NCBI RefSeq assembly: GCF_044704955.1 | Contig: NC_091995.1 | Location: forward strand, 19,778,001-19,842,000 | DNA: 64,000 bases | Direction: 5' to 3' | From: Pristiophorus japonicus | Taxonomy: Eukaryota | In this document: piece after piece, positions 1 through 54,356 of the stretch | Numbering within the stretch: position 1 is the stretch's first letter | Layout of the letters: each line of letters starts with the position of its first letter | The notes under the pieces: model-generated | The model's database searches: none | The model's input: the letters and a program-made list of their open reading frames with translations, nothing else | Told to the model about the DNA's origin: nothing | Program-made: the position numbers and the translations under genes

Positions 1-2735
1 GAAGAAGTCAGGTACCCGCGAATCTTCCAAATTTGTCCATAGTCATGTGATACCCCAAAAGCATACCTGGAGTCAGTGTAGATATTAACTGTGTGTCCTT
101 CAGCCAGAATACAGGCTCGAGTTAACGCAAACAATTCGGCTTGTTGGGCTGAAAAGGAGTCTGGAAGAGAGGCTGTTTCGACAACATTAAACTGAGTTAC
201 AATTGCATAAGCCGCTCTAGGTTGGCCCCTATCATTTCGTAAGGCTGATCCGTCAACATAGTACACTAGCTCAGGATTACACATTGGTACATCTGTTAGA
301 TTGATACGTGGTTTAGTCACTAATTCGGTTACCATTTCACATGAATGGGGTTCGCCGTCGTCTTCCGTGGGGAGTAGAGTGGCTGGATTTAAGGTAGTAC
401 ATCTTTTGATGACAAGGTTCGGATTTGATAACAGTTCGACCTCGTATTTGGTGGTTCTTGCGGAGGTTAGGTGTTGGGTGGCACATTTAGTAAGTAAAAT
501 CTCGACAGAGTGTGGGATATATAAAATGGTCTGATGATTTAGAGTTATTGTCTGAGCCTGTTGCATAGCATAATAAGCTGCTGCCAACGAAGGAAGACAT
601 CCTGGTAGTCCGCATGCCACTGGGTCTAGTTGGGTACTGAAATACGCTACCGGTCGCTGCCTGTCCCCATGTAACTGAGTCAAAACAGATTGTGCAAAAC
701 CCGACTTGTGATGCACAAATAAGTTGAATAGCTTAGTGTAATCTGGTAATCCCAAGGCGGGTGCTGAAGTGAGGGACTGTTTAAGGTTCTGAAAAGCATT
801 CCGGGATACCGCATTCCAAATCAACTTCTCTGGTAGTGCGGGCATGGACATGTCTAACAGTGGTCTAACAATCTCGGAATAACTCATAACCCATTGCCGG
901 CAGTATCCTGTCATGCCGAGGAGGTGTTTCATTTCTCTCTTGGTTACTGGTAGTGGGGCAGAGCAGATTGCTTTTACTCGGTCTTGTGTCAATTGTCTCG
1001 TATCCCTGACCAATTCGTGCCCTAGATACCGAACCTTTTCTGAGACAAATTGTAACTTTGCCTTTGACACCTTGTGTCCTTTCGAGGCCAGAGCTTTTAA
1101 TAACACAAGGGAGTCCGTTTCGCAGGCCAATTTGGAGGGTGAGGCGAGCAATAAGTCGTCAACATACTGCACAAGTGTAGAACCTGCTGGTAAAATTACA
1201 TCTTCCAGATCCCTCTTTAGGCACTGTGAGAATATGGTAGGGCTCTCGGTAAATCCCTGCGGAAGTCTTGTCCACGTATATTGGCGTCCTTTATACGTGA
1301 AGGCAAACAGGAATTGAGACTCTGGGTGAATAGGTATTGAGAAAAATGCTGAACACAGATCAACTACTGTGTAATACGTTGATGATGCCGGAATACTGGC
1401 AAGTATAATTGCCGGGTTGGGTACCACTGGATAAGTTGGGAATACCGAATGATTCACGGCTCGTAGGTCTTGGACAAATCTCCATTTGTCACTATTGGGC
1501 TTCTGCACCGGAAAGATCGGTGTGTTACATGGACTTCTAGTTGGAACGATTACTCCCTGGGCCAGCAGGGACTTAATGACTGGCTCAATACCTTGTTCTG
1601 CGGCTGGGGACAAGGGGTATTGGGGCTTCTTGGGGAGCGGGGCGGTTGAATTGATTGCTACCTTATAGGGTTGTGCGGTAAGCATCCTCCCTACTTCATT
1701 AGCGTGTGTAGACCATAGTTGTTCTGGAACTTTAGCAAGAAGCTCTGCTGTGCTTTGTCGTACTGGGAAGCTAGTGGCTGAGAGCATCCTTTCTTCTAAG
1801 ACAGCATCGAAGTATACTTTCCCATTCAACCTGACAGAATAGCCTCCCCCCTTTTCATGTTGCCCCAAAGTTCCATTACGTGTGTGCCATTCCTCTTGTA
1901 CTGGGGATCCTTGCATTCTTTTAACCATCTGTCCTAAATCCTGGGGTTTATGTGTGCCTGCAACCGCAAGGGTGCAGTGTGGAACGCTCCCTTTAACCCT
2001 AAACAAGCTCTGACTGTGGGAGGATAATTCAACCCCTGCCGCTATCCCTTCGGGTCCGATAAAGATTTTTCCGATCATCAATTGATGTTTCTGGTGCAGG
2101 AATGGTTGATAAAAGATTTGTGCTGTAGCGTCTGATCCCGTTTTGTCACAATATGCTGTGCAGTGTAATGTTTCGTACCACTTGCCCAAGGTTTGAGATT
2201 TGAGGTAGTCTGTGATTAACCTTGTTACACACCAATATGAACCAACCAAATAGGATAGGGTTTTGCTTAGTGTGGGGTCCAAATTTTCCCAGGCATACAA
2301 TATGGGAGTTGTGGGTTGAAGTAGTGGATATGCGCCACATTTATCTATGGGGACTCGAACCTCCAGACCAGCTGGGGAACAGAGGATCGTGGCATTCATT
2401 TTACATAACAGGTCACGTCCACACAGATTCACTGGAACCTCTTTAGACAGTAGGAATGAATGACTATCTTCGTAATCCTCTATTTGTACATTGATAGGGT
2501 TGGAGAAAAACATTTGCTGTGCGTGTCCAGATAGTCCAATCACTGAGGTTTGATTAGTGGAAGTGGGAATTCCCCTCGTATCCTCCCTTGAAAGGACCGA
2601 ATAGGTGGCACCAGTATCCACTAGGAATGGGACATCCTTTCCTTGTATTCGTATTTTTACTTCAGGTTCTCCTATGGCATTTAACGAAACGACAGGAAGC
2701 TGTTTGTTCGCAGCACTCGGGTCTGGGATTGGGCG
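1..2735 (-). CDS. pol: Retroviral pro-pol (protease, 2H phosphoesterase, RT, RNase H; integrase lies outside the window)
   Basis: DTG (D codon 2616-2618), HCT (2163-2165 and 1977-1979), YVDD (Y 1164-1166) and RNase H DGS (D 252-254) are all in one frame, the same frame as the gag TGA at 2736-2738. Its absence from the ORF track is consistent with no stop before the window edge. Confidence 0.9.
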
Positions 2736-4480
2736 TCATTGATCATTATACGGGCAATTTGGTGGTTGGCCGAATTGCTTTTGATTCTGTGATCCAAATG
2801 GATCTTGCACAGAGAAATGAGTCTGAGGTCTAGCATGTACCTGGACTTGGGTCGCATACTGGTTGGGTTCTGAAGGGGGAGGGTGTGCTCTATTACCTGC
2901 CTGTTGAGTCCAATCATGATTTGGTTGTTGCTGTTTTGCCCGGCAAGTTCTAGCCCAGTGTCCAATCTGACCACAATTGTGACAGGTATAATATTGTTCC
3001 TGCCCTGCACCTCCTCTCCCTCTTCCCCTGTAATATCCTCCTCTGGCTCGCCCTCTTCCTCTACCCTGGGGTGGGGCGTAGGACGGTGTCACCGGGGTGG
3101 GTGTCATTGGAGCTGCTTGTCCTACAAACATGGTGACCTTGCTTTTAGATTCTCTATTTCGCTCTTGTATGTCCTTTAACATAGATACAACCTTGGATAG
3201 CGATTCCTGTCGCCATCCGAGACAAACTAGTTTAAAGGGATCTCTGAGTTCGGGCCGTAGCCCGTTTACCACGGCGCTGATCATAGGAGCCTCTACCTCC
3301 TCCATTTTCATGCCTGAACATTGGTTCATGATCTCTCGCACTCTTTCTACATAATCCTCAACATCCTCCTCCTTTCTTTGTGTAGTTTCCATAATTTTGG
3401 ACCAATTCGTTTTCCTCGGGAACACCGAATGTAAGGCTTCCCAACATCTTCCCCAGAACCCCTCTCCTGGCTTCGTGCTGGGATCTGCATCCGGAGCCTC
3501 TCGATGGGTTTTAAAATCTTTGAATTTTATCTCAAGTTCGGCAAATTTTGTGTCCTTTAACCATGCTTTCAGTAAGATTTGACCATCTAATATACTGGGT
3601 TCGTGGCACAAGATGATTACTTTTAACTGGTCTATGGCCTTTTCAATATTGGTTTTGGGGTCTGCCAATCCTTCCACAATTATTCTTAATTCACTTGGTG
3701 ACCATGGTCGATAAATAGGGACCGGAGCCCCCCCCGAGAGTGGACTGGGAAAAAGTCTTACTGGGTATACTGATGATGATGGCTCCAGGGCACTGGGCTC
3801 TGGTCCACGGGTATGACTTCGTGTGCCCCCTGCAGGGCCGTCACGGTATTAATTCCCTTGTGACTGACTTATATTTCCTGCAGCCTCACCTGTATTGTTG
3901 GGAGCGGGTGTTACCCCGTTTCCCTGTACTCCGGCCCGAGGATCATCTCCTCCTTGGCCTGGAGCACCCCCCGGGGATGGAACATACGGCGGTGGTCGAT
4001 GGCTGTAGGGAGTCCAATCCTCATCCCAGTCCTCATCCTCATCCTTATCCCAACCCTCCGGAGCCCTAGGTGAGTGTGCCTTTGTCTCTTTAGCAACCAT
4101 AACGGATGGGTGTTTGTTATGTCGAGGGCGTTTCACCTGCTCTATCCGTTCATCCCCCTGCTTTCTCCCTCTAGTACACTGCTTGCTAACTCTTAGGCTC
4201 TTCTCGTGTCGTTCCTCAGCTTCCCTTTTCCAATCTCCAAACGCTGACCAATTCACTTTTTTTTTTTTCCTCTTCTACCTGGGTCTCTGTCTATAAGGCA
4301 TTCTTCTAGACAGGTTATTCTCTCTAAATTGAATGAACCATCGGGTGGAAATGATCTGTTTTCACCCTTAGTCCATTTTACCCATTCTCTTAGGTGGTCA
4401 ATTGAAGACTGACCACAATTCTGGAGCATAAAATGGGCTGGGGTCCCTTTTGGTGGTGGTTTACTTGCTCCAGCCCCCAT
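2736..4480 (-). pseudogene. gag: Retroviral gag with one homopolymer frameshift and one premature stop
   Basis: The MA ORF 4253-4480 shifts frame at an A12 run (4257-4268). There is an in-frame TAA at 3849-3851, then an open frame through CA (YRPWSPSEL...) and NC (CHNCGQIGHWARTC) to TGA at 2736. Confidence 0.9.
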
Positions 4481-4920
4481 TCTGGATGATTTAAGATTTT
4501 ACCACAGTTTCTGATCTCACAATCCTTTCGGCCAACCGAGTTCTCTACGCCCACACTCCTGGCCGTTACGTGGCCTGAAAAGGCTCTTAATTCGGGCTCA
4601 GTCTGGGTGTGTGAGATATGTTGGCACGAACCAATCGTAGTTGATCAATCAGTTACTGTTTCTTTTCTTAATCAATCCTTGTGTTTTTTTTTCCGAATCA
4701 CAATTTTCCCTAGTGACTCTTCCCGTTTCTCTAATGGCAATGACTCACAAAGGTATTGCACACAACAGTAATACAAGGACAACAAACAATATTCCCGTGA
4801 GTACACAAATCATAACCTCTAAACAAATTCTCAGTCTGCGTTGTACGCCACTACAGACCGAGTCCTTAACTTATCCTAATAACAGCTGATAAAACTTAAG
4901 GTTCCGTACCCAAACTCTTT

Positions 4921-7575: not shown

Positions 7576-7665
7576 TTGGCGCCTGGCTCAAGCCAAAGGC
7601 CAGAGCCAGCAAAACTGGAAAAACGAGTTTCTGCAGTCAGTCGATTTGCATATGAATGCCCAATC

Positions 7666-7705: not shown

Positions 7706-7719
7706 GTCGTGTGAGATAT

Positions 7720-8059
7720 TTTTTTTTTTTTTTTTTGAAATTCGTAGCCAATCGTTCCAATTCTTTGTCAAATCACAAACGCCAGAGGTCACCTTGCACA
7801 CGCCAAGGATCACTCTGCGCCAATGCTCTTAGCCAAAAGGCCTAGAGCCACTGCACCGTTCCTGGAAGTACTGCAATACCAGGTTCGTGCCATGGAGGTG
7901 GATGGGTCAGGTCCCCCACACACCTCCGTGGAGGTGGATGGGTCAAGCCACCCCACCCACCTCCTGTTTCCAAAAAAGCAAGCATATACCTTCCTGATCC
8001 AGGGAGAACCACCCGGAGGTCATGGTGGCTGGTCAGGTCAGTTACGCATGATCTTAGCC
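7720..8059 (-). mobile_element. U2/U1/U2 snRNA-chimeric polyadenylated retroposon (SINEU-like)
   Basis: The minus strand reads U2 nt 19-29, a U1 5'/stem-loop I-like segment, a U2 Sm-site/SLIII-like segment, U2 SLIV (7852-7884, 32/33 to human U2), U2 nt 11-26 again (7827-7842), a unique tail and poly(A). It is flanked by TGTGAGATAT at 7710-7719 and 8060-8069. Confidence 0.85.
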
Positions 8060-8075
8060 TGTGAGATATATGACA

Positions 8076-8205
8076 GTTAGGGTTAGGGTTAGAGTTAGTG
8101 GTTAGGATTAGGGTTAGAGATAGTGGTTAGGATTAGGTTTAGAGTTAGTGGTTAGGATTAGGGTTAGAGATAGTGGTTAGGATTAGGGTTAGAGATAGTG
8201 GTTAG
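8076..8205 (+). repeat. Telomere-like minisatellite (TTAGGG variants; ~25-bp unit GGTTAGGATTAGGGTTAGAGATAGT)
   Basis: Directly visible tandem TTAGGG/TTAGGA/TTAGAG/ATAGTG variants. Confidence 0.9.
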
Positions 8206-8293
8206 TTTTAAGATTGGGATCACTGGTTAGTGAATTAGGATTAGGGTTGTTGACCACAACACAAATCAGTATAAAATTAAAAGAACCACTCAC

Positions 8294-11120: not shown

Positions 11121-11654
11121 TCCTCTGTCGTAAACCCAACCCCACAGTCAGAAGGACAATTCCAACATGCACTACATTCCCCCTGGCCCACAGAAGATAC
11201 ATTTTAGCCTGTATTTCGATCATAATTATAATAATCTTCAACGCAAAATGTATTTAGGATTTAACTAGGACCAGAGGAAATCATGAAAGGGTTTATGATA
11301 TTGCCAGATAGACAATCCCCCTCTCTGCCCCATTATTAGTATATTGTTGCCTTGGTCACCTTACAATAACTTGAGTGTTTCAGTGCAGACAGATGCAGGC
11401 TCGAGATCCCACGGCTGGGCTGATGTGTGCATTGTCCTTCTCCACAAGGCTTCTGTGCCAAGTCTTCCAGTGGTTCAGGACCTACTGTTCACTGGAATTT
11501 TATTAATGGACCTGACATCAAAGGTGTCCCGGCTGGAGGACCATCGAATGAAAATGTTAACGTGCGGAGAGAATCCATTGTTAATGGTGTGTTGGTCTTC
11601 AGATTTGAGGAGGCGATATTTAAACCCCTTGTGTCAGATCCAGTTGTTGATAAT

Positions 11655-11845
11655 GGGGGGAGCAAAATTAGAACACGGGCGGGGGCACAAAACGGGCGGT
11701 ATCGCATTGGTCACCCGTTATACGCCCGGCCCGATATTCAGTTCCGTTGACGTCAATAGCACTCAATTTTGGGCCTGTGATATAACGGGCACCAAATACA
11801 ATTCCACCTGTTTTGTGTCCCCCCACCTAAGTCCAATTCCACCCC
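11655..11845. mobile_element. Palindromic MITE-like element
   Basis: Imperfect ~95-bp inverted arms (GGCACAAAACGGGCGG...CCCGTTATA / TATAACGGG...CCACCTGTTTTGTGTCC) around a central TTGACGTCAA (11747-11756). Confidence 0.7.
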
Positions 11846-12436
11846 TACGGTCTATTGAACAAAGGGTCAGAGCTGCAGCCGTCACAGTTCCGTTGCTCCT
11901 CTCTGCTTTCTTGGTCTGCACAGACCCGTTGTCTTATTCCGGATGGCAACTCAACCCATTATCACCCGATTCATTTTTATTTCAGAATGTTATGACCGTC
12001 TTATCTGTATTGTGCCGAAAGAGTCTTATTTGCTTCTTGAGTCCTGCCGTGTCAGATTGTACAAACCGCTATTTTAGAGCGTCGCAGTGAATTGGACGAC
12101 CCGTATTGTTCTGTTATGTTGGAAAGTGAATGGTGATCATTTCTACCTTGTACATTGCACAAACCCATCAGGATTTGATATCTCAGGATGCATGGATGGC
12201 TTTAACACCCCGCTCACTGTAATTGGTAAGGACGTATTTATAATAAAATGTTTCTGTATATTCTGTTACACTACCTTGTAGTTTCTGCTGTAGTGATGTA
12301 CTGATTAATAGCACACTGTTCGGCACGTATGACTGAATCGGGGGTAAATAAAACGGGGCAGGATATTCTCTGCCCACAATGTGTTAGCGACGTTATAAAC
12401 ATAAGCGGAAAGATTTTCAACTGAAGTTGGAAAATG

Positions 12437-12870
12437 AGTGGTAGCCTCTCAGTGAGAAGGTCGTGGATTCAAGTCCCACATCAGGGACTTGAGCCCAAAA
12501 TCTAGGCTGGCACTCCAGTGCAGTACTGAGGGAGTGCTGCACTGTCGGAGGTGTCGTCTTTCGGGATGAGATTTAAACTGAGGCCCTGTTTACCTTCTCA
12601 GGTGGTCATAGAAGATCCCATGGCACGATTTCTGTGACGAGTAGGGGACTTCTCCCCGGTGTCCTGGTCAATATTTACACCTCAAACCAACACCTAAAAA
12701 GAGATTATGTGGCCCTTTATCTCTTGCTGTGCACAAATCGACCACCGCGTTTCCTACAATACAACAGTGACTACACTTCAAAAGTAATTCATTGGCTGTA
12801 AAGTGATTTGGGACATCCTGAGTTTGTGAAAGGCGCGATAGAAATGCAAGTCTTTCTCTTTTTATCTATT
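12437..12870 (+). mobile_element. tRNA-derived SINE, DeuSINE/SacSINE1-like
   Basis: B-box-like GGATTCAAGTCCC, Deu-domain-like GCACTGTCGGAGGTGTCGTCTTTCGGGATGAG and an L2-like tail AGGCGCGATAGAAATGCAAGTCTTT. Confidence 0.7.
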
Positions 12871-13470
12871 TCTTTCATTATTTCTTTCTTTTTCTCTCCC
12901 TTTCTCTCTCTCTAAGAGCAACAATGAACCCAACACCCTTTCCCTGGACCATCCTTGTCTTGTGTTCCCAGTGGGGTCCCGCCAGCTGACCACACAAAGT
13001 TCATCCCAACATTCCGGTACTTATCCCAGAACCTCTTTGTGTGGGGCTGGCTCCTGGCTAGGCTTCCCACACTGATACATGGAAATATCAGTCGGTTTGA
13101 CATCACGAATACGGTTTGGTTTCTAAGCCAAGTTTCGGAGCTGTGAAGACAAATCGCCCCAGCGCCACAAATTCAACCGGATAAATTAAACTGAACTCAA
13201 TTTTACCGATTTCTACTGGGTGTTATCCTGAAGGAATATTGCTGCATGTTGGTCCAAAATGTGCATCCATCAGTATTGGAAACAATTTTGTTTCCTTTCA
13301 ACAGAAGGACCACCGATATATGTCCAAGTGGAGATGGGGTGTGACTTGGTGGGGAACTTGGGGGTGGTGGTGTTCCCATGCACCTGCTGCTCTTGTCCTT
13401 CTCGGTGGTGGGGGTCAGGGGTCAGGGGTCAGGGGGGTTCTGTTGTAGAAGGCTTGGTGAGTTGCTGCCT

Positions 13471-13545
13471 GTGGTGGAGGGAGTGGGTGTTTAAGGTGGG
13501 GGAGGGAGTGGGTGTTTAAGGTGGGGGAGGGAGTGGGTGTTTAAG
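13471..13545 (+). repeat. 25-bp G-rich VNTR, 3 copies, within a LINE fragment
   Basis: Unit GTGGGGGAGGGAGTGGGTGTTTAAG. Confidence 0.85.
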
Positions 13546-14319
13546 CTGTTGAATGGGCTGCTGATCAAGCTGACTGCTTTGTCTTCTATTGTGTTCGGAT
13601 ATTTATATATGTGTAAGTTATATTTAAAATTCCTGTTCAAATAAAGTCACTCTTCAAATGCACCCATTGTCATTTGAAAACATATTCTTCCTGTGACCAT
13701 AAATGCTGTTGCCTCAAATCACAAGGGATAGAACTGGTGGTACTGTTGGTTACAGAGGAAACAATTATTTATTTAACCTAAGTGTATGAAATTTTGCTTT
13801 TCATTGTGTGATTGACATTTAGAACTCGCAGCAATTGAAACCTCGTGTTCAGGGAGTTACAATATATTTGGGAATGTTAAAGGACCCCACTTTTGACCTA
13901 TCATTGGATATCAGGACACCTTCATTGCATATTACAGTAAATGGAACATTTTCACCTGTAGGTATTTTCTCAAAACATGACCACCAATGTTGAAACAATG
14001 TAAAGGTGTGTGTGAACTTCCATGGTTGGAGATTGGGAAGCTGTGCAATACCAGGTCAACATCTTGGCAGAACCACACTGCCGGCTGGTGACCAAATGAG
14101 TCCCTTCAGCACCTGGTTATATCTGTGGAGACGACCAAAGACACCAATAGTCAACACGGCACGCTGTCTGTCATCTGCTGGCAGCCTCTCACTTTACCGG
14201 GCTGACACACCCCTTAACCCATGCTTTTCTGTTTTTGTCCGTGCACATCGGGTACAATCTACAAGAACAATCTGATCAACAAATGTAACAAGATCTGGTT
14301 AGGATAAAAGTGCACAGGG

Positions 14320-14905
14320 ACATAGGAACAGGAAGAGGACAGACAGTCTCTCAAGCCTGTTCCATCATTCACTTTGACCATGGCTGATCTGTATCGTAAC
14401 TCCATTTATCTGGTTTAGTTCCATATCCCTTCAGACCCTCACCTAACAAAAATCTGTCAAAGTCAGTTATGACCTTTTCAAACAACAACCAGACTCAACA
14501 CCTTTTTGGGGAAGAGAGTTCCATATTTCCACTACCCTCTGTGTGAAGAGGTGCTTCCTGACATCACCCCTGAACAGCCTGGCTCTAATTTTAATGTTAT
14601 GCCCCTTGTTCTGGAATCCCCCACCAGAGGAAATAATTTCACTCTTATCGACTGTATCAAATACTTTAATCATCTTAAACATCTCAATGATATCAGCCCT
14701 TAATCTTCTATACTCAGCGGAATACAAGCCAAGTCTATGCAACCTGTTTCCATTATTTAACCCTTTTAGCCCAAGTATCATTCTGGTCAATCTGTGCTGC
14801 ACCCTCTCCAAGGCCAACATATCCTTCCTGAGATGTGGGGCCCAGAACTGAGCGCAGTGCTCCAGATGTGGTCTGACCAGAGCCTTATACAACTGGACCA
14901 TTACT
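14320..14905 (-). mobile_element. CR1 LINE 3' fragment
   Basis: ORF 14467-14973 contains LYKALVRPHLEHCAQFWAP...FTQRVVEIWNSLP. Confidence 0.85.
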
Positions 14906-15976
14906 TCACCTTTTAAGGCAAGTAACAGAAATAAATAAAGTACATTGCCCAAGAATTTCCGCTTTGAACGCAATCAGCAATCCGGGCCCAAATTGCGTCT
15001 GTTTTGAGAAGTTTTATTTCTCGAGTTCCTGCTCAAACTCATTTGCATATATTGGAACAAACCAGCGCAACAGACGGAAAGTCCAGGCCCCAAAATGGAC
15101 AAAGGACGTAGAAAACTAAAGCAGCGAGAGGCCTGAGGCAAAGGGGAGAAAATGGCAGAGATGGGAAACAGGAAACATCCGGACAGAAAGGGTGAATTTA
15201 AAACACACTTTTAAACTAAAACACAAGTTGGTAAAAGTACAGCGGACCAGAGAAGGGACAGAACAGGTGAAGAGGGAGGGCACAGCCTACCTCCCCCAGC
15301 TCTGTGGTCTGACCAAGGATTCCCCCAACGCAAACACCAACCTGTCTCCCCCTTCCCTGGGCACCGACAGAACCCGCTCCCCACCCCTCCCCGAATATCT
15401 CTGGAGATATCTGGTCCCTGATCGATTTATACAGCTCTCTGACGGGCATTTTCCGTACTTTGCCCGTGGATCCCAAATACCAGTTTTGCTCTATTTATTT
15501 CCCCACCCAAGAACAAGGCCCAATTATTGGGAGACAGTAAATGAAAGTGCAGTTAAATGAAAGGTGTTGCACACAGTGATGAGTTGTGCGCCCAGCGTCA
15601 TTCTGTCCAAAGTGAACTAACAAAGTGAGTGCGCTGGGTTGTTAGTGAACCATTAACCTTTTTCTCTCCACTTTCCATATTTGCATCTCAGCACTTTGTG
15701 AGCAGGAAGGAGTTGCCTATAGGCTGGAAAAACAAGAAATGTACCACAAATAACAGCATTCCTCACCACCTCACACACTTCACCTTTTTTGTATTGGTTC
15801 ACACCTTGAGCACAACATATTCCCAAGTGTACAGAGTCTGAGTGAGTTTACAGAGAAAAACATAGAAGTTACAACATGGACACAGGCCATTTGACCAAAC
15901 CGTCCATGTCAGCATTTACCCTCCACCAAAACCAGTAATTCTATTCACATTTAACCGTCCTGTTCCCATATCGCAT

Positions 15977-16708
15977 TCGGTAACGATCGGAGGGTCGGGG
16001 GATCGAGGGGGAGGAGGGGTGTCGGTAACGATCGGAGGGTTGGAGGATCGAGGGGGAGGTGAGGTGAGGTATCGGTAACGATTGGAGGGTTGGAGGATCG
16101 AGGGGGAGGAGGGGTGTCGGTAACGATCGGAGGGTCGAGGGATCGAGGGGGAGGAGGGGTGTCGGTAACGATCGGAGGGTCGAGGGATCGAGGGGGAGGA
16201 GGGGTGTCGGTAACGATCGGAGGGTCGGGGGATCGAGGGGGAGGTGAGGTATCGGTAACGATCGGAGGGTTGGAGGATCGAGGGGGAGGAGGGGTGTCGG
16301 TAACGATCGGAGGGTCGAGGGATCGAGGGGGAGGAGGGGTGTCGGTAACGATCGGAGGGTCGGGGGATCGAGGGGGAGGTGAGGTATCGGTAACGATCGG
16401 AGGGTTGGAGGATCGAGGGGGAGGAGGGGTGTCGGTAACGATCGGAGGGTCGGGGGATCGAGGGGGAGGTGGGGTGTCGGTAACGATCGGAGGGTTGGAG
16501 GATCGAGGGGGAGGAGGGGAGTCGGTAACGATCGGAGGGTCGGGGGATCGAGGGGGGAGGAGGGGTGTCGGTAACGATCGGAGGGTCGAGGGATCGAGGG
16601 GGAGGAGGGGTGTCAGTAGCGATCGGAGGGTTGGAGGATGGAGGGGGAGGAGGGGTGTCGGTAATGATTGGAGGGCCAGTGGATCGCGTGGGCAGTGTCG
16701 GTAACGAT
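15977..16708 (+). repeat. 45-bp G/CpG-rich minisatellite
   Basis: Unit TCGGTAACGATCGGAGGGTCGAGGGATCGAGGGGGAGGAGGGGTG, about 16 copies. Confidence 0.95.
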
Positions 16709-17511
16709 TTGGGCCAGAGGAGCAAATCGTGGGTCAGAGCAGCGGTGGGACGATTGGATGGCTGGAGAAGTGAGGGGCGGGGGGGGCGATCGAGGGGAGA
16801 GGTCTGGAATGACCGGGGAGCAGAGGAGAAGCAGGGGTCTGGAGCAGCAGATCGGGGGCAGGAGGAGCGGATTGGTGGCAGGAGGGAGTGTGGGGGGGTA
16901 GGATTTGGAATATCCGGGAGGAGCAGGAGTGGGAGATGGGGGCGCTGGGGGCGGGGTGGGTGGAGGAGGCAGACGACATCGGAGGACGGGAGGAACATGG
17001 GGAGGGGGATCGGAGGCCTCGGGGCTTGTCCGATCGTGGGGAGGGGGTGAGGCAGGGACACTGGATCCAGGAGGTAAGTGTAAAGGTGCTTACCTCCTGG
17101 ATCCAGCAGTACTCACCTTCCATTAGCTGGCGGCTTTCACCAGGCCTGAAAAACCCAACCAGCTGCAGTTACATTTAAAATGGAGGTTAAATCTGAGGCA
17201 CGCCAGCCTCATTATAATATTTAAATGTTGACCCGCCTCCTGGGAGCGGATTGGCTGCCCGGCCTGGCCCCGCCTCCGTTAATACCGGAAGTGGGCGGGT
17301 TGGAGGCGGGTTCTGGTCAGGATTCAGATTTTAACACTTTAACTTCCCACCCGACCACAACCCACCCGTTTTTGGGGTTAAAATTCCCCCCATTGTCACT
17401 CGGTTGTACCCGGCCTGACCTCAGGTGACATTGGGACCATCCGCACCACCTGTGACTGAGACCGACGACCATCAGTTTGCAGCTGGCAGGAGGCAGGGAG
17501 GTGGTGTGAAA

Positions 17512-20500
17512 TTATGGGATGGACAGGTTAGTGACCTTTGACCCACAGATTGTCAGCGGGGCGGAGTTTTTCCTGCCGTCACTCTGTCCCGGACTGAAGA
17601 TGGGAAAGAGTGTCTCAGTGAAAGTGTGGGTGAAGGTGTGGAGATGGGACATGTTGTCCGCATTGTAAAATGTCACCTGTCCCCCCTCATAGTCCAGGAA
17701 CACCCCGATCTTCCGGGGATCCCCACTCGGGGTGAGGGGGGTCAGTGAGGGGGAGGTGAGGGCAACATAGACACTTCCGGGCACTAGCCACACAGTCCAG
17801 TATCCGGCCTCAGGTCTCAGGCTGATTCTCCCTTTCCTGTTGACAGACTCTCGAGCCACTCCCACACCCCACCGTGTCTTGTTCCCCACCTCCACCTCCC
17901 AGTAGTGTCTCCCTGATGTGAATCCCTCCGATCCCAAGACATAGAGACAGGGATCAAACCTCTCCGGGGTGTCAGGGAGCTTCTGCCGTTTGTCTCCGAG
18001 TCTCACACTGGTCCGGTCCTCAGACACGATGAGCCAGGGATTCGCTGTGTTCAGATCCAGAGTCAGAGAGGCTGGAGCTGGGGGAAAGTTACAATAACAC
18101 AGTGAGCGGTTTAGTTTGTTGCTGTGATTTATTCAAACACTTTCCCTTTTTAAAGTGGCCATTCGGGGGATTCCCGGGAACTGCGGTGTGTTTAAAGGGC
18201 TCCAGGTTCTGTTATTGGAATCTGCTCTGACCCGGGGGTTTACACTCCTGGGGTCACTCTGACCTCTGCTGACCACTGCGATCTGACCAGGAACTCTGCG
18301 GCCCCCGGTCCCCTGCTGTTCTCAGCGGCTGCAGAGTGACCCAGGGACCTTCAGAAACACACAGGGAATCGGCACCAGAGGCTACGGCGGGGCTTCCGAA
18401 CGGAAGAGGGGGAAAGGTGCAGGCACCGGAAGGGAAGAGAGAAGGGAAGAGGAAAACGGAAAAGAAGCAAAAGTGGGGGAACTGCTGCAGAGGGGAAGAG
18501 AGAACCCAGAGGAGGAGGGAAATTATATTAAAAAAACAGCATCATTATATCCATAAATCACAATAGTCTCCAACACACAATCCGGCAAAACTAAACTGAT
18601 GGACATAAAAGGACAGGTGGAAGCGGCATTTCGACAGGAGACCCTCCTCATCGCCCTCAGAACACACCAGGTTTATGAGTGAGTGGGTGGTACAAATGCT
18701 GGCCGCCTTCTCCTCAGCCAAGAGCAGAGGACAGTCACACTAATCACCAGCAACCTCCCCATTACTCTGGAGATACACATTCCTGGAGAAGGAGGCCGCT
18801 CCATCCTAATGAAATTTGATGAACAGGAGAACCCAAAGTGATGCTTCAGTTCAGTGTCCGGAATGAGGAGTCCCCACATCAGCATTCCTCACACTCGCCC
18901 CACCTATGGACAGCACAGGAACCAGGAGTGGAGACCCAAACTGTGCTCTTCACTCCAAACAGGACAAGCTCCCAGCGGACACAGGACACGAGGACCAGCA
19001 GCCGGAGCAATCCGAGATCAGTGTGGTGTCCTGGGCCGAGAGGATGTATAGTGGGCCCACACCCCAAAGAGAAGGAATTCACCTTCTACTTGAACCCACA
19101 CAAGACACACTCCAGGATCGGCTACTCCTCCCTGAAGCATCCCGTCTATCCCACCTAACCTGTTGTGATAGGAGGTAAACAGGACTTGCACCAATTATCC
19201 TCCATTCAGTCCTCGGAGCCTCAAACCTTCCTTCCTACATGACTCAGAGTTCCTGCCTACCTCTAGGCGAAGCTCATCTCCTCACATATACCCTAAGGTG
19301 GAAAATGCAGGACTGAACTATTGCACACGGTCACTCTGTGCCCTAATCTCAGACAGTGAGCTCTAACCTGGAAAATCCACACCAACTGACACCCACCCTA
19401 CCAAGATTAACATCCCATAATCCCAGAGCTTTCTCCCCTCCAACTGAACCTCCCACACTCTGTACTGGAGACACAGAACCAGATACTCTGAAATACATCA
19501 CAATCATGTCAATACATAAGAAAAGTAAGGTTTTCCCCACATGGTCACCATACACACTCCTTAATGCTGACTATAAAATATTGGCCAAGGTCCTGACCTC
19601 CAGACTAGACACGGACATCAGTGATCATTTAATCTGGGGTCTGGGAGCCGGTTTAGGCTCCTCTCATCTGGGTTTATAAATCAGGGAAAGGAATATAAGA
19701 GTTTTACCGGGGTTAATGGTGTCTATCATTTCTCTCCACGCTGTGTACTGTAAGGGGCCGTTGAACTTTCCGATCGACAGCTTGTCATCTGCTAATGATA
19801 GTTTATAATAATCCTCACCAGTCCTGTAAATATTAAACAGTTGATGTTATAAATTGACCATAAACACTTTGCTGAGTTATTTTACTAAATTGTGCAGAGT
19901 TTCAGTAAACAGTTTGTCCTACCTCCTCTTCTGACACGTTTCCTCCTGAAATCAATAAAACACAAATCTGAGTTAACGGAGACTGACCGTCTATATCCGG
20001 ACAGCAGAAATTACACCCACATAGTTACAAGATGCTGATAATTCCCAATTCTCACTGCCGGGACCACACAGAAAGAAAGAGGATATATTTGAAAACTGGA
20101 CAGCAGAAATTTCACCAAAAACTATGAAAATCATCTGATAGATAGATCATTCAGTTGGGAAAGTGATTTAGTTGTCAGGTTGTGGAGGTCGGGAGGTGAG
20201 TCACTGAGTTGGGAGTCCATGAGTTCGGCGAGAGGCCTATAAAGGCCGCGAGGTCGGGAGGTGCGTCACTGAGTCGGGAGACCGTGAGTTCGGCGAGAGG
20301 CCTATAAAGGCCGCGAGGTCGGGAGGTGCGTCACTGAGTCGGGAGTCCGTGAGTTCGGCGAGAGGCCTACAAAGGCCGGGAGGTCGGGAGGTGCGTCACT
20401 GAGTCGGGAGACCGTGAGTTCGGCGAGAGGCCTATAAAGGCCGCGAGGTCGGGAGGTGCGTCGCTGAGTCGGGAGTCCGTGAGTTCGGCGAGAGGCCTAT

Positions 20501-23500
20501 AAGGCGGAGCTTGTGCAGCTACTGGGAGAAGGCAACAAAGAAGTGGAAAGAAATAGAAAGATGATGTCACAGCCACGGGGGTAAGTGATTGGCTGGTGAT
20601 TGGTAAGTAGTTTTTCTTTTTTTTCTTCTATATCAGTGAGTAACTTTTAGCACTGTTGTTGCCAATTTATGTGTATCTGAGGGTTAAGGCATGGCAGGAG
20701 AGCTCGGACACGTGTTATGCTCCTCCTGTACTATGTGGGAAATCAGGGACGCCTCTGGTATCCCTGACGACTATGTGTGCGGGAAGTGTATACACCTCCA
20801 GCTCCTGACGCACCGCATTGCAGCACTGGAGCTGCGGGTGAATTCACTCTGGAGCATGCATGATGCTGAGAATGACGTGAATAGCACGTTGAGTGAGTTG
20901 GTCTTACCGCAGGTAAAGGGTACACAGCCAGATAGGGAATGGAAGACCAGCAGGAAGAGCAGTGCAAGGAAGGTAGTGCAGGGGTCCCCTGTGGTCATCC
21001 CCCTGCAAAACAGATACACCGCTTTGAGTACTGTTGGGGGGGATGACTCATTACGGGGGAGCAGCAGCAGCCAAGTTCATGGCACCGTGGCTGGCTCTGC
21101 TGCACAGGAGGGCAGGAAAAAGAGTGGGTGAGCGATAGTGATAGGGGATTCAATTGTAAGGGGAATAGATAGGCGTTTCTGCGGCCGCAACCGAGACTCC
21201 AGGATAGTATGTTGCCTCCCTGGTGCAAGGGTCAAGGATGTCTCGGAGCGGGTGCAGGACATTCTGAAAAGGGAGGGTGAAAAGCCAGTTGTCGTGGTGC
21301 ATATAGGTACCAATGACATAGGTAAAAAATGGGATGAGGTCCTACGAGGTGAATTTAGGGAGCTAGGAGCTAAATTAAAAAGTAGGACCGCAAAAGTAGT
21401 AATCTCAGGATTGCTACCAGTGCCACGTGCTAGTCAGAGTAGGAATTGCAGGATAGCTCAGATGAATACGTGGTTTGAGGAGTGGTACAGAAGTGGGGGA
21501 TTCAAATTCCTGGGACATTGGAACCGGTTCTGGGGGAGGTGGGACCAGTACAAACTGGACGGTCTGCACCTGGGCAGGACCGGAACCAATATCCTAGGGG
21601 GAGTGTTTGCTAGTGCTGTTCATGAGGAGTTAAACTAATATGGCAGGGGGATGGGAACCTATGCAGGGAGACAGAGGGAAATAACAAGGAGGCAGAAGCA
21701 AAATATAGAAAGGAGAATAGTAAAAGTGGAGGGCAGAGAAACCCAAGGCAAAAAACAAAAAGGGCCACATTACAGCAAAATTCTAAAGGGGCAAAGTGTG
21801 TTAAAAAAACAAGCCTGAAGGCTCTGTGCCTCAATGCGAGGCGTATTCAGAATAAGGTGGATGAATTAACTGCGCAAATAGCAATTAACGGATATAATGT
21901 GATTGGCATCACGGAGACATGGCTCCAGGGGGACCAAGGCTGGGAACTCAACATCCAAGGGTATTCAGCATTTAGGAAGGATAGACAGAAAGAATTGCTG
22001 GTTAAAAATGAAATCAATGCAATTGTAAGGAGGGACATTAGCCTGGATGATGTGGAATCGGTATGGGTGGAGCTGCGGAATTCCAAAGGGCAGAAAACGC
22101 TAGTGGGTGTTGTGTCTAGACCACCAAATAGTAGTAGTGAGGTTGGGGACAGCATCAAACAAGAAATAAGGGATGCGTGCAATAAAGGTACAGCAGTAAT
22201 CATGGGCGACTTTAATCTACATATTGATTGGGCTAACCAAACTGGTAGCAATGCGGTGGAGGAGGATTTCCTGGAGTGTATTAGGGATGGTTTCCCAGAC
22301 CAATATGTCGAGGAACCAACCAGGGAGCTGGCCATCCTAGACTGGGTATTGTGTAATGAGAAGGGACTAATAAGCAATCTTGTTGTGTGAGGCCCCTTGG
22401 GGAAAAGTGACCATAATATGGTAGAATTCCTTATTAAGATGGAGAGTGACAAAGTTAATTCGGAAACTAGGGTCCTGAACTTAAGGAAAGGTAACTTCGA
22501 CGGTATGAGGCATGAATTGGCGAGAATAGACTGGCAAATGATACTCAAAGGGTTGACGGTGGATAAGCAATGGCAAACATTTAAAGATCACATGGATGAA
22601 CTTCAGCAAATGTACATCCCTGTCTGGAGTAAAAATAAAACTGGGAAGGTGGCTCAACCATGGCTAACAAAGCAAATTAAGGATAGTGCTAAAGCCAAGG
22701 AAGAGGCATATAAATTGGCTCGAAAAAGCAAAAAAACTGAGGACTGGGAGAAATTTAGAATTCAACAGAGGAGGACTAAGGGTTTAATTAAGAGGGGGAA
22801 ATAGAGTACGAGAGGAAGCTTGCAGGGAATATAAAAACTGACTGCAAAAGCTTCTATAAATGTGTGAAAAGAAAAAGATTAGTAAAGACAAATGTAGGTT
22901 CCTTGCAGTTGGATTCAGGTGAAATTATAATGGGGAATAAAGAAATGGCAGACCAATTGAACCAATACTTCGGTTCTGTCTTCACGAAGGAAGATACAAA
23001 TAACCTTCCGAAGGTACTAGGGGACAGTGGGTCTAGTGAGAAGGAGGAACTGAAGGATATCCTGATTAGGCGGGAAATTGTGTTCGGGAAATTGATGGGA
23101 TTGAAGGCCGACAAATCCCCAGGGCCTGATAGTCTGCATCCCAGAGTGCTCAAGGAAGTGGCCCAAGAAATAGTGGATGCATTGGTGATCATTTTCCAAC
23201 AGTCTATCGACTCTGGATCAGTTCCCATGGACTGGAGGGTAGTTAATGTAACACCACTTTTTAAAAAAGGAGGGAGAGAGAAAACGGGTAATTATAGACT
23301 GGTTAGCTTTACATCAGTAGTGGGGAAAATGTTGGAATCGATCATGAAGGACGAAATAGCAGCGTATTTGGAAAGCGGTGACAGGATCGGACCAAGTCAG
23401 CATGGATTTATGAAAGGGAAATCATGCTTGACGAATCTTCTGCAATTTTTTGAGTATGTAACTAGCAGAGTGGACAAGGGAGAACCAGTGGATGTGGTGT

Positions 23501-25964
23501 ATTTGGACTTTCAGAAGGCTTTTGACACGGTCCCGCACAAGAGATTGTTGTGCAAAATCAAAGTACATGCTATTAGGGGTAATATACTGACGTGGATAGG
23601 AACTGGGGGGTTGGCAGACAGGAAGTAAAGAGTTGGGATAAACGGGTCCTTTTCAGAATGGCAGGCAGTGACTAGTGGAGTGCCGCAGGGCTCAGTGCTG
23701 GGACCCCAGCTCTTTATAATATACATTAATGATTTGGATGAAGGAATAGAGTGCAATATCTCCAAGTTTGCAGATGACACTAAGCTGGGTGGTGGTGTGA
23801 GCTGTGAGGAGGACGCTAAGAGGCTGCAGGGTGACTTGGACAGGTTAGGTGAGTGGGCAAATGCATGGCAGATGCCGTATAATGTGGATAAATGTGAGGT
23901 TATCCATTTTGGGGGCAAAAACACGAAGGCAGAATATTATCTGAATGGCGGCAGATTAGGAAAAGGGGAGGTGCAACGAGACCTGGGGTGTCATGGTTCA
24001 TCAGTCACTGAAAGCGGGCACGCAGGTACAGCAGGCGATAAAGAAGGCAAATGGTATGTTGGCCTTCATAGCTAGGGGATTTGAATATAGAAGCAGGGAG
24101 GTCTTACTGCAGTTGTACAGGGCCTTAATGAGGCCTCACCTGGAATATTGTGTTCAGTTTTGGTCTCCTAGTCTGAGGAAGGACGTTCTTGCTATTGAAG
24201 GAGTGCAGTGAAGGTTCACCAGACTGATTCCAGGGATGGCTGGGCGGTCATTTGAGGAGAGACTGGATCAACTGGGCCTTTATTCACTGGAGTTTAGAAG
24301 GATGAGAAGGGCTCTCATAGAAACATATAAGATTCTGACGGGACTGGACAGGTTAGATGCGGGAAGAATGTTTCCGATGTTGGGGAAGTCCAGAACCAGG
24401 GGACATAGTCTTAGGATAAGGGGTAGGCCATTTAGGACTGAGATGAGGAGAAACTTCTTCACTCAGAGAGTTGTTAACCTGTGGAATTCCCTGCCGCAGA
24501 GAGTTGTTGATGCCAGTTCACTGGATATATTCAAGAGGGAGTTAGATATGGCTCTTACGGTTAAGGGGATCAAGGGGTATGGAGAGAAAGCAGGAACGGG
24601 GTACTGAGGGAATGATCAGCCATGATCTTATTGAATGGCGGTGCAGGTTCGAAGGGCCGAATGGCCTACTCCTGCACCTATTTTTCTATGTTTCTAACTG
24701 AACACCAGTCTCACTCAGAGACACGGTGACTCTCACACCCACCGTATCAGACACACCCACACACTCACACAATGTAACTGGGCCAGGAATGTAATGTGAG
24801 CTCCACGAGAATATTAACCTCTTGGGGAATACAGAAATAATTACAGGCCAAGCATAAGATCACGGCAACTCGTTCCCAGATCCTGCAGACAGTGTGGGAG
24901 CTGGTTAGTTCAGTCACAATAGCAGATCCATCTCGGAATCGACAAAACAATCGGTTTAAATCAGTTTAGAATTTTTCAGCAAATGCTGCATTTATTCCGA
25001 CATTGTCGGTTATTGTGCAAGTAACCCGCAATATAATCCTCACCTTCAGAAATGTCAGCCCGTCTTGTTGCTCCATCTGTTTCTGCAACTTTGAAAGCTG
25101 CTCCTCAATAGAATTTAAATTCTCTTGAATTTCTCGAAGGTTTTTCTCCATTGTATCTACAATCCTCTCCTCTTCTCCCCTGAGATCTCTGATTAAACGC
25201 TGCTCTTTCTCAGTGAGAATCTGGTGCATTTTAGTGAACTCGGATGTGATGTGGGTCTGCAGACTGCTCGACTGTTCCTACCAAATGAAAGGTGAAAAAT
25301 AATCATGTACCGCGATAGAGGGAACAAAACTCACCGAGATCCCAGAAAATCAGCACAGGGAGACCTTACCCTAACTTCGGAAATCTGCCGTTTCTGTTTC
25401 CGTTCCGTTTCTAGAACCACCGATTTCTTCTCTGTGAGAGATTCTAAAGAGGATTTCAGCTGATCCTGGGATTGGGAGAAAATCACAGAATGAAAGGGCC
25501 GGACTATGAAAATGTGATAAAATAATCAGGTGATAAAATCTGTTCCATTTTACCTTGTAGATTTCAACAGCTTCTTTAATCGGCATGAAGTTGTGAGATT
25601 TGTGTTCCCGCGCATCTCTACAAGTGTAACAGATCAGTTTCTTGTCAGTTTCACAAAACAGCTTCAGTTCTTCCTGATGTTCCTCACAGTGAGGTTTATT
25701 TTCCTTCTCTCTCGGATTCAGGGTTAATTTTCGAGCTTTCTCCGACAGACTGGCCAAGACCCGACTGGTCCTGAGGTTTATTTCCGGAAACTCCTCTCTA
25801 CATTCCGGGCAGGAGTTTGTCTCCTTCTTTTCCCAACACCGTGTGATACAGGAGCGGCAGAAGTTGTGTCCACACTCCAGTGAAACCGGATCGGTGAAGA
25901 ATTCCAGACAAATGGGACAAGTTACCTCCTCAGTCCAACTCTCGGGCTGCTGCTTGGAAACCAT
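17512..25964 (-). CDS. TRIM protein, RING-Bbox2-coiled coil-PRY/SPRY (TRIM39/A33/NF7-like), copy A, 481 aa. Exons 25964-25554, 25465-25370, 25277-25044, 19945-19923, 19823-19708, 18077-17512
   Basis: [12 protein letters not shown]...CGHNFCRSC...CPEC, B-box [12 protein letters not shown]...C..C...H, and B30.2 motifs LDLNTAN, HYWEVEV, LDYEGG and FPIF. All introns are GT-AG, and exon lengths 411+96+234+23+116+566=1446 nt keep the frame. Confidence 0.93.
19540..19612 (+). mobile_element. Decayed L1/Tx1 RT fragment in TRIM intron 5
   Basis: Translates to [21 protein letters not shown], matching the L1/Tx1 RT motif RPISLLNxDYKILAK. Confidence 0.6.
20185..20505 (+). repeat. 65-bp tandem monomers (5 copies) at the CR1 5' end
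   Basis: GAGTTCGGCG recurs at 20221, 20286, 20351, 20416 and 20481. Most units have CCTATAAAGG and TGCGTCA. Confidence 0.9.
20185..24696 (+). mobile_element. Full-length CR1 LINE (ORF1 zinc finger plus SGNH esterase; ORF2 APE-RT), disrupted, antisense in TRIM intron 3
   Basis: ORF1 has CSSC..CGKC and GDSIVR/HIGTND/DGLH. ORF2 has [23 protein letters not shown] and KFADDTK. The 3' tail is TTTTTCTATGTTTCTA, and there are several stops and frameshifts. Confidence 0.93.
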
Positions 25965-25994
25965 GTTCACACTCAGCACTTCCTGATTCAACCC

Positions 25995-26050
25995 ACTTTC
26001 AGTTTCAATGTTGCTGAGCTCCAGCTGGATCCTGTCACTAGGTGGCGCTG
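25995..26050 (-). promoter_or_regulatory. ISRE-like element and CTCF-like motif upstream of TRIM copy A
   Basis: ACTTTCAGTTTC (GAAACTGAAAGT on the coding strand) at 25995-26006, ~30 bp before the ATG, with an adjacent ETS CAGGAAGT. TCACTAGGTGGCGCTG is at 26035-26050. Confidence 0.6.
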
Positions 26051-27821
26051 CTGGACAATATTTCTCAACCAAGGATTTTTGTAGGTTTCCTGAAAAAGAT
26101 TTTGTTGCAGGAAAACCACACATTTGCTTTCTGTGCAGTGAAGGGCCGTATTAAACAAACCGATTTACTCTGTGCATCAGTTTAATGTTGTATGGAGCCA
26201 GGAAACAGGCTCTAAAGGTGTAGAAATAATTGCTCTAATTTCAAATGTTTTGCAGGTGATGTGAATATGTCAGAAACTGATAATTATCCTGGATTTGTTA
26301 AACTATTTAATTGCACCATCCTCCATACATTGATGTGCTTTTTATAACAGTTTATTGATTTAATGTGAGGTTTTGGGGGATGTGCCGTTATGTTGCTCCA
26401 CATGTTGGCCCAGATTTGAAGTTTGGAGCCACCTCTGGTCATATTTCAGGCCCGGGCAATCTGAAAGTGAGAGGTGGGCGGACTGGGCGGAGTCTTGCTG
26501 AATTCCCGGGGAGTGGGGTACATCGGGTGGGGGGAAGAAGGCAGCCTCCTAACTGCTGGAAACACATTCTTGTGCTCAATTCTCACTGCAGCTGGTGGTG
26601 TCCGGGCACGGCCGTGCTACAGGAGCGCTTGTACAGACCTGGAACTATCGAATCCCTAAAGCCCCTCTCTTTATCCGTGCAGATGTTGGTCTGAGCAGCC
26701 ACCGTTATCCGTGCAGATGTTGGTGTGTGCTTCCTACAGCTGGTGACTGCCCCCATTAAACCCCGAATGACTGTATCCCCCTCTCTCCAATTATGCAGGT
26801 CCCGGTGTGTGTCCCTTACAACCGGATCCACCACAATTACCTGCCAAGTACATTGTGGAACAACCCACTCTGCATGGACCGAGCGAGACCCAGTGTGAGC
26901 GGATGTTTGGGGCGGTTTTCTCCTTCGTTCTTAGCCGCAGGGCCATGGGTCTGTTCAGCTCAGGGGAGTCTCTGAATCTGATTTTAAAATACATAACCAT
27001 ATATAAATAAATAAATCAATGGATACTATTCTGGAAATAAAACAGAAACTAATTATTTAAAAATTAAGACTAGTCCAATTAATTTGGCTCTGATGCTTTT
27101 GTCTTGATTCTCGTACAGACTGTTTTAAAATCAGAAGTTGTGTTTGATTTGTGGTAAATATGTAAACGTGCTCCGTGACACAGTTTTGTGTGGTTCAGAA
27201 GGTGAGTGAAGAAATGATCGATATATTACTGACATTAGCTCAGGATGGGGGCAGGCTCCCACGGTCCTGGCGATCTGTTCTGGTCCTGGATACACAAACA
27301 TAAACAAAACCAAGACAGGCCAGATAATGAGCAAGTGCCTGGATGATCCGTGTCTGACCGTTACAGTATAATAATCCCACATTAAAGGGGAGCTTTTCAA
27401 TGAAGGGCTAACCTGAGAATAGTTCAGAAAGGTACAGCTTTCATCGTACAATAATTGGTAAACCGTTTTACATGTCTGACTGTACACAATGTGGGAAATA
27501 GCATCAAAATACAGTTTGCTGTAATTTACAAGTTTTACCTCACCTGAGCCAAGCTGACACACTTGTCTTCATGCATCACACCCATGTACCCTACAACGCT
27601 GTTATTAAACGACTCACCTCCCTGCACCTTTCCCACCTTTAAAAGCTTCCTGAGAACCTGCAGCATTAACTATGGGCCTTGGCTCATTTACCCCAACTCT
27701 TCTCACCCACTCATCAATGTTTGCAAGCTCTTGAAATATTTTGCTACATCACTGGAGTTGTTTGCAAATACCTTGTTCTATTTCTACTTTTATATAATCA
27801 AAACCTTTGTGTATTTTTTAA

Positions 27822-41475: not shown

Positions 41476-41975
41476 GTGGGGGAGGGAGTGGGTGTTTAAG
41501 GTGGGGGAGGGAGTGGGTGTTTAAGGTGGGGGAGGGAGTGGGTGTTTAAGGTGGGGGAGGGAGTGAGTGTTTAAGGTGGGGGAGGGAGTGGGTGTTTAAG
41601 GTGGGGGAGGGAGTGGGTGTTTAAGGTGGGGGAGGGAGTGGGTGTTTAAGGTGGGGGAGGGAGTGGGTGTTTAAGGTGGGGGAGGGAGTGGGTGTTTAAG
41701 GTGGGGGAGGGAGTGGGTGTTTAAGGTGGGGGAGGGAGTGGGTGTTTAAGGTGGGGGAGGGAGTGGGTGTTTAAGGTGGGGGAGGGAGTGGGTGTTTAAG
41801 GTGGGGGAGGAAGTGAGTGTTTAAGGTGGGGGAGGGAGTGGGTGTTTTAGGTGGGGGAGGGAGTGGGTGTTTAAGGTGGGGGAGGGAGTGGGTGTTTAAG
41901 GTGGGGGAAGGAGTGGGTGTTTAAGGTGGGGGAGGGAGTGGGTGTTTAAGGTGGGGAAGGGAGTGGGTGTTTAAG
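41476..41975 (+). repeat. 25-bp G-rich VNTR, ~20 copies
   Basis: Tandem GTGGGGGAGGGAGTGGGTGTTTAAG. Confidence 0.95.
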
Positions 41976-54270: not shown

Positions 54271-54300
54271 GTTCACACTCAGCACTTCCTGATTCAACCC

Positions 54301-54356
54301 ACTTTCAGTTTCAATGTTGCTGAGCTCCAGCTGGATCCTGTCACTAGGTGGCGCTG
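54301..54356 (-). promoter_or_regulatory. ISRE-like and CTCF-like motifs upstream of TRIM copy B
   Basis: ACTTTCAGTTTC at 54301-54312 and TCACTAGGTGGCGCTG at 54341-54356. Confidence 0.6.

Follow-up and report, generated by a model that had tools for sequence, protein, structure and literature searches.

A young U2/U1-derived SINE family in a shark genome and its putative source copies at U2 genes

Introduction

How does a short retroposon pieced together from spliceosomal RNAs obtain both a promoter and the machinery that copies it? The question is raised by an element on the minus strand of the window, by which we mean the whole 64,000-nucleotide stretch of Pristiophorus japonicus DNA analyzed here. 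The original prediction, made from the letters alone, read this element as a U2/U1 chimera and left two explanations standing: an independent family of snRNA-mosaic SINEs or the 3' untranslated region (UTR) of a Tx1 LINE that mimics snRNAs. The main points absent from that first reading are a U2-headed, Keno-type LINE that adjoins the SINE and SINE copies that reside at position +1 of U2 genes.

SINEs with snRNA-derived heads, known as SINEU, were found only in crocodilians, and their transcription was left open (Kojima 2015, PMC4494074); in the accessible part of PMC5786205, it was still undemonstrated as of 2018. A search of the open literature found no snRNA-headed SINE outside crocodilians, nor do the accessible parts of PMC5786205 and PMC5381603 contain one; Repbase, Dfam, and subscription journals fell outside its scope, and an entry may exist there. 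Relative to PMC4494074, the shark host, the U2-targeting partner, and the residence at U2 +1 are new, and together they offer a concrete answer to the transcription question.

Results

The window copy and its snRNA mosaic. The element occupies 7720-8059 on the minus strand between two copies of TGTGAGATAT, the 5' copy of the target-site duplication (TSD) at 8060-8069 and the 3' copy at 7710-7719, and it ends in a 17-nt poly(A) (7720-7736; 17 T on the forward strand); the predicted minus-strand element with poly(A) and a perfect 10-bp TSD is thus exact to the base. Its U2-derived head (8029-8059) consists of exact U2 19-29 followed by degenerate U2 30-52, without U2 1-18. A U1-derived segment (U1 19-57; 7993-8030), with its stem retained and its loop diverged, is followed by a U2 Sm-site-like U-tract (7970-7981), which reads C-U6-G in the window copy and A-U5-G in two other subfamilies. 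Two hairpins derived from SLIII come next, hairpin a (7930-7964, with a 13-bp stem) and hairpin b (7894-7927), the latter an internal duplication, and then U2 stem-loop IV (SLIV; 7851-7890), a second U2 5' stem-loop (U2 7-29; 7824-7846), and a hairpin-bearing tail of non-snRNA origin (7737-7823). All of these features lie on the minus strand.

Full copies start at U2 nt 1, and the window copy is 18 nt short of them at its 5' end; a head beginning at U2 19 is therefore a correct description of this copy and, for the family, merely a 5' truncation. We give all further positions on a full-length natural copy (L020; window coordinate = 8078 - position), aligned to the U2 (L031) and U1 (L047) genes of the same genome, which were located by an Rfam search. 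SINE 1-49 corresponds to U2 1-52, with 1-29 identical to U2, and SINE 48-85 to U1 19-57 (28/39 columns; a score reached by 0/500 shuffles), with a longer U1 match in sister subfamilies. SINE 102-153 corresponds to U2 100-149 and SINE 148-227 to a second copy of U2 109-186 that includes SLIV (SINE 194-227, U2 153-186, 94% identity), after which SINE 232-254 matches U2 7-29 at 21/23 positions and an 87-nt tail completes the element. The U1-like segment, the internally duplicated Sm/SLIII-like segment, the nearly intact SLIV, and the second U2 5' stem were thus all read correctly. So was a tail of about 90 nt; it is not snRNA derived, but neither is it unique, because an older U2-dimer SINE carries a homologous tail.

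In the recommended Rfam check, U2 was seen at 30.5 bits (E = 4e-4), below its gathering score of 46, and U1 was absent among hits at E<=10. Matches to a prion pseudoknot, PVT1, pRNA, and miRNA all fell under their gathering scores, and we dismissed them as chance. The RNA fold of the element beats 100/100 shuffles (z = -3.8).

A young family of several thousand copies. A pattern of 36 nt from the SLIV core has 4,943 exact matches in the genome and a 29-mer from the tail has 2,542, with 0 matches to the reversed control in either case. Among the 1,651 candidates of a DNA search, 40 were scored, and 322 nt are identical in 9 of the best 30 loci, the window copy among them. Our copy sample comprises 98 of the first 100 tail matches listed, all on contig 1 (chromosome 1) and distributed over 88 loci, two overlapping loci having been dropped. 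Within it, a TSD of at least 6 nt flanks 62/98 copies, against 18/1,933 mispaired controls, and the 5' start falls within nt 1-22 in 54/98 and within nt 1-10 in 41/98. At least six subfamilies have at least four sampled copies each; they differ in the head, the U1 segment, and the loop sequences, and heads have been swapped between them. Copies are arranged in tandem at 19/88 loci, and in several of these (L051, L079, L118, and L142) the TSD incorporates the first bases of the adjacent copy's head, which indicates sequential reuse of one site.

The family is young and numbers several thousand copies, so the single copy that was to refute the prediction is not what the genome contains; thousands of copies with shared junctions, together with the TSDs of the sampled copies, bear out an independent, multicopy snRNA-mosaic SINE in a shark. 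It is almost certainly a genuine SINEU-like family: the head derives from U1 and U2, the length is below 500 bp (about 340 to 345 nt plus the A-tail), poly(A) and TSDs are present, and the copies descend from master genes and are not independent chimeras.

SINEU prefer Mariner-N4_AMi as a target; the insertion targets of the shark family include U2 nt 38, the family's own heads, and several other repeats, with no long target consensus among the sampled insertions. The preference at the nick is weak, with A at -1 in 50/54, which the poly(A) rule in part imposes, either A or C at -2, and either T or C at +1. Six of the 98 copies (L066, L075, L122, L144, L145, and L169) are inserted at one position of a repeat whose upstream stretch is similar to U2 11-40, and five others (L078, L118, L120, L121, and L150) share one position of a second repeat.

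A Keno-type partner LINE. Directly downstream of the SINE, at 7705-6136 on the minus strand, lies the 5' piece of a LINE with a U2 5-44 head, a 5' UTR, and most of ORF1; this piece is 96.7% identical to intact copies within a tandem array of U2 genes. ORF1 of the LINE contains PF23057, PF23058, and zf-CCHC, domains that we take to be of Tx1 type, and ORF2 contains PF03372, PF00078, and PF13966 (AP endonuclease and reverse transcriptase). Full copies measure 5.7 kb, the ORF2 frame is uninterrupted in eight of the loci retrieved (L091, L094, L102, L103, and L106-L109), and a first look yields 780 candidates genome-wide; intact partner LINEs and identical SINE copies thus coexist in one genome. 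Within the array, 14/19 LINE tails join U2 at TCTGTTCTTATCAG, while the other 5 keep this register but join the head of a LINE (4) or of a SINE (1). This sequence is the 3' target of Keno according to the accessible text of PMC6136364, and the Keno target in U2 is also given in the accessible text of PMC4640811; by its domains and its 3' junction, the LINE is of Keno type. A Takifugu homologue was set aside as a Keno reference, its record bearing no family name.

The SINE adjoins 7/15 dispersed LINE loci, and in 5 of them the same TSD lies between SINE and LINE; two dispersed LINEs are 99.7 to 99.8% identical to the array LINE. The SINE shares its target preference with this Tx1-clade LINE, as SINEU do with theirs. 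The predicted mobilization by Tx1 is likely, given the insertion sites and TSDs common to both elements, and we infer that the Keno-type LINE very probably mobilizes the SINE in trans. By analogy, the LINE machinery likely recognizes the SINE through its A-tract, and A-tract recognition is a feature of L1-type systems.

An exact octamer motif, which we take to be an snRNA distal element, lies in the LINE 5' UTR just behind the U2 head (window 7645-7652, minus strand). One SINE subfamily has an intact match to U2 nt 33-38, presumably the stretch that pairs with the branch point, but the LINE and most SINE subfamilies carry changes in it.

SINEs at position +1 of U2 genes. Our inventory of the array covers five stretches with 268 units behind a common upstream sequence, of which 239 are U2, 17 SINE, and 12 LINE; retroelements therefore occupy 29/268 sampled units (about 11%). 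All 19 array SINE tails (19/19) join U2 at the Keno site TCTGTTCTTATCAG. In the 17 SINE units, the U2-identical head replaces U2 nt 1-37 directly after the U2 upstream sequence, and the first base of the SINE is U2 +1. These array SINEs belong to a sister subfamily, whose identity to the window type is about 91% and whose marker has 99 matches (19 in the array and 80 dispersed) against 4,943 for the core. Three nested variants of this subfamily, the first step between which is a single A in a homopolymer, are represented by 1, 2, and 16 copies in the array and by 26, 2, and 2 copies in a sample of 30 of the 80 dispersed ones. The oldest state thus dominates outside and the newest inside, as expected if the array hosts a source lineage that turns over, and the presence of the nested variants in both settings suggests that the array is a source. 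The two dispersed copies of the newest variant among the 30 have 5' starts at nt 3 and 5.

The window subfamily itself is found at U2 +1 in neither the array (0/18) nor a second U2 locus (0/20), and the other nonarray subfamilies of the chromosome-1 sample have no +1 copy in either known U2 locus. Likewise, 0/8 tail-to-U2 junctions of the window subfamily lie in an intact array-type U2 unit; their U2-like side belongs to older SINEs or to a short U2 fragment. Because an assembly gap interrupts the array, part of which lies on unplaced contigs, this absence is weak but real counterevidence. A 5' transduction was considered for a lone dispersed copy (L179), whose 4- to 5-nt match to the array upstream sequence is too weak. 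At the array edge (C19:69.62-69.73 Mb) occupancy is nearly complete, with 11 LINE, 5 SINE, and 1 intact U2 unit and with LINEs inserted in LINE heads; the unplaced array contigs hold mostly intact U2.

Promoter signals. The genome has two U2 gene types (L031 versus L104) with 8 differing positions: type 1 forms the short-unit (~770 bp) tandem array with no recognizable PSE, and type 2 comprises 20 long-unit copies on C9 and C1033 with a PSE-like motif. No octamer occurs within 300 nt upstream of either type, and one is present in 8/8 U1 genes. The PSE score upstream of the array was matched by 214/2,000 shuffles under an underpowered profile, built from three snRNA upstream types, for which the positive controls gave 1, 104, and 219 of 2,000 (two of three failed). 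Array-type U2 has the top Rfam score, and its 3' end is carried by an older SINE; these are indirect signs from sequence that it is or was transcribed. Scored against the common A and B box consensus, the SINE weakly resembles an A box at 18, 38, and 77 (2 mismatches each), and its best B box has 3 mismatches; together with T-runs (T4/T6) at 15, 101, and 240, the poor B box argues against Pol III. The snRNA head, the T-runs, and a B box with at least 3 mismatches likewise set the family apart from classical Pol III SINEs (SINE1/2/3), whose heads derive from 7SL, tRNA, or 5S RNA and combine internal A and B boxes with the lack of an internal terminator.

Constraint and truncation. The prediction held SLIV to be much better conserved than the rest of the element, and this is so relative to SLIII (32/34 versus 28/46; p = 0.0006) but not relative to the U2 head (29/29). 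Among 71 near-full copies, substitutions shared by at least 4 copies fall in 1/70 stem columns versus 11/24 loop columns of SLIIIa, SLIIIb, and the tail hairpin (p = 4e-7), and the SLIV loop has 0/13 variable columns, without a shared variant among subfamilies, against the same 11/24 in the other loops (p = 0.003), p-values that are optimistic because variant columns are not independent events. Head nt 1-28 have no shared variants, and stems show no deficit of private changes (0.53 versus 0.42 per column). Neither host U2 type has the SLIV loop of the SINE, and a single pattern probe for a U2-like gene with the letters of that loop returned 0 matches; recent copying from U2 is therefore no explanation for its constancy, and we rejected refreshment from a current U2 variant. 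The hint of selection on SLIV thus gains statistical support and is qualified by the decayed U1 loop, in which 4/10 columns carry shared variants. A likely reason for the retention of the stems and the SLIV loop is snRNP-like handling of the RNA; that the RNA is bound by snRNP proteins is a tentative prediction, somewhat less likely than not.

Truncation is sharply focused: 32 of 44 truncated copies start at 101-130, and 21 of those at 111-120 (p ~1e-21 versus a uniform null). In every main tail variant, this hot spot coincides with the base of SLIIIa, immediately 3' of the Sm-like U-tract. A separate short master is unlikely, because the starts of such copies are ragged and each of the four main tail variants includes some of them. 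The truncation could reflect a roadblock formed by an Sm ring, trimming as far as the hairpin, or release at a hairpin in the cDNA; the tail class enriched for the canonical Sm site shows no excess of truncated copies (5 truncated versus 19 full, against 10 versus 13 in the other).

Discussion

We consider it fairly probable that the window element, truncated at its 5' end, represents a young U2/U1 retroposon that is copied by a Keno-type LINE and whose source copies sit at U2 +1. The LINE endonuclease would nick U2 at nt 37/38, and reverse transcription would prime on the SINE A-tract. Because the U2-identical head would take the place of the 5' part of the gene, the insert would inherit an external Pol II snRNA promoter together with the U2 +1 start, and U2 genes are, on balance, the putative promoter and source of the SINE. 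Array turnover would then amplify and remove source copies and so yield successive subfamilies, while relaxed targeting would scatter daughter copies genome-wide. The shark family, with its intact LINEs, young copies, and candidate source genes, makes promoter capture directly testable, and if capture is real, snRNA-headed SINEs would arise repeatedly where Keno-lineage LINEs are active.

A less probable reading accepts the same Keno-mobilized family and regards the array copies as sinks. Transcription that enters dispersed copies from flanking promoters or adjacent LINEs would then supply the source RNAs, and U2 +1 ends would arise by a change of template to free U2 snRNA inside the 29 identical nt, the kind of switch onto snRNA that Kojima proposed for SINEU (PMC4494074). 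The absence of most subfamilies, the window type included, from the assembled array is in keeping with sinks, as are the lack of a shown PSE upstream of it, the frequent adjacency of SINEs to LINEs or other SINEs, and the head swaps; however, the array contains all three nested variants and is richest in the newest, the two dispersed copies of the newest variant start near the head's first base, and the flanks examined share no 5' extension. An internal promoter in the U2/U1 head, Pol III-like or LINE-like, would require no particular locus and is improbable. The A-box-like matches and the constancy of the head could be taken for such a promoter, but the T-runs and the want of a good B box speak against it, no internal promoter is reported for snRNA genes (PMC4494074), and the head's constancy is also explicable by its role as a target and by refreshment from U2.

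Least probable is the pair of readings in which the element is the 3' UTR of an snRNA-mimicking Tx1 LINE or one of many independent processed chimeras. A Tx1 piece does adjoin the SINE in the window, but it is a LINE 5' end and lies downstream; the intact LINE copies end in an unrelated UTR; and the alignment score of the SINE tail with the LINE 3' UTR is matched by 69/500 shuffles. The tail's lack of similarity means that the SINE is not a LINE end, the sampled copies start within the element with their own TSDs (62/98), and we reject the 3' UTR model for this LINE family. Recurrent template switching evidently shaped the SINE family, as independent chimeras would lead one to expect, but the same junctions recur in thousands of copies.

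The closest known system is SINEU-1, -2, and -3 of crocodilians (PMC4494074), which share with the shark family U1/U2-derived heads, a length below 500 bp, poly(A), TSDs of about 10 bp, recurrent snRNA additions, partial duplications, tandem insertions split by a TSD, internal oligo-T, and a Tx1-clade partner that has a U2-derived head and no tail in common with the SINE. The shark family differs in its host, in a partner with the Keno site of U2 as its target, as opposed to Tx1-Mar/Mariner-N4, in its copies at U2-gene +1, in an architecture derived from a dimer of U2, U2 head, and tail, and in the coexistence of intact partner LINEs with identical young copies. It is not a named crocodilian family but works like SINEU, and by comparison with the published description its origin is likely independent. 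The partner LINE resembles Keno, a U2-specific member of the Tx1 clade, in its AP endonuclease and reverse transcriptase and its 3' flank TCTGTTCTTATCAG in U2 genes; from Keno as portrayed in PMC4494074 and the accessible text of PMC4640811 and PMC6136364, it differs in its relaxed specificity, its own U2 1-44 head, which regenerates the target, and its dependent short element. Utopia, as far as the accessible text of PMC4640811 describes it, has the same target site in U2, with loss of the upstream U2 fragment on insertion, but its endonuclease is restriction-like, unlike the PF03372 of the partner LINE.

The family also resembles R2 in 28S rDNA in its site specificity within a tandem RNA-gene array, its proposed use of a host-gene promoter, and array turnover. 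R2 has nonautonomous derivatives, which are deleted LINEs. It differs in residing in a Pol I rDNA unit, as opposed to a Pol II snRNA unit; moreover, the shark system has an AP endonuclease and a short element made of host snRNA, and most SINE copies sit outside the array. R2 is cotranscribed with its host gene (PMC4494074).

One might go further and view the SINE as a parasite of the U2 unit, which would enter at the Keno site, take over the promoter and +1, and mimic an snRNP through an Sm ring and SLIV-binding proteins, with a truncation footprint at the Sm core and a mutated branch-point-pairing stretch in most subfamilies; we consider this composite doubtful. In the older SINE, a near-complete U2 is followed by another U2 head and then by a tail homologous to that of the present family, which likely descends from such a U2-dimer through a U1 piece in place of SLII and duplications in SLIII and the tail. 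The older element (L104 4088-4600; L171-L178) has itself been hit at its U2 nt 38.

Other features of the window surround the element. Degenerate tandem telomere-like TTAGGG units lie immediately upstream of the SINE (8075-8210), and an LTR/ERV-like element occupies 3-4644 on the minus strand, with a zinc-knuckle gag and, continuing past the window edge, a long open frame for protease, RT, and RNase H. A tandem duplication of about 28 kb (11299-26150 and 39304-54456) carries TRIM exons (RING, B-box, and PRY/SPRY) and CR1-like LINE pieces. One TRIM exon has 95% identity to a sawshark protein; its identity to the best-matching proteins is mostly 76 to 83% in other sharks and about 44 to 61% in bony vertebrates. 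These identities place the host among the sharks, outside the crocodilian distribution of SINEU-1, -2, and -3.
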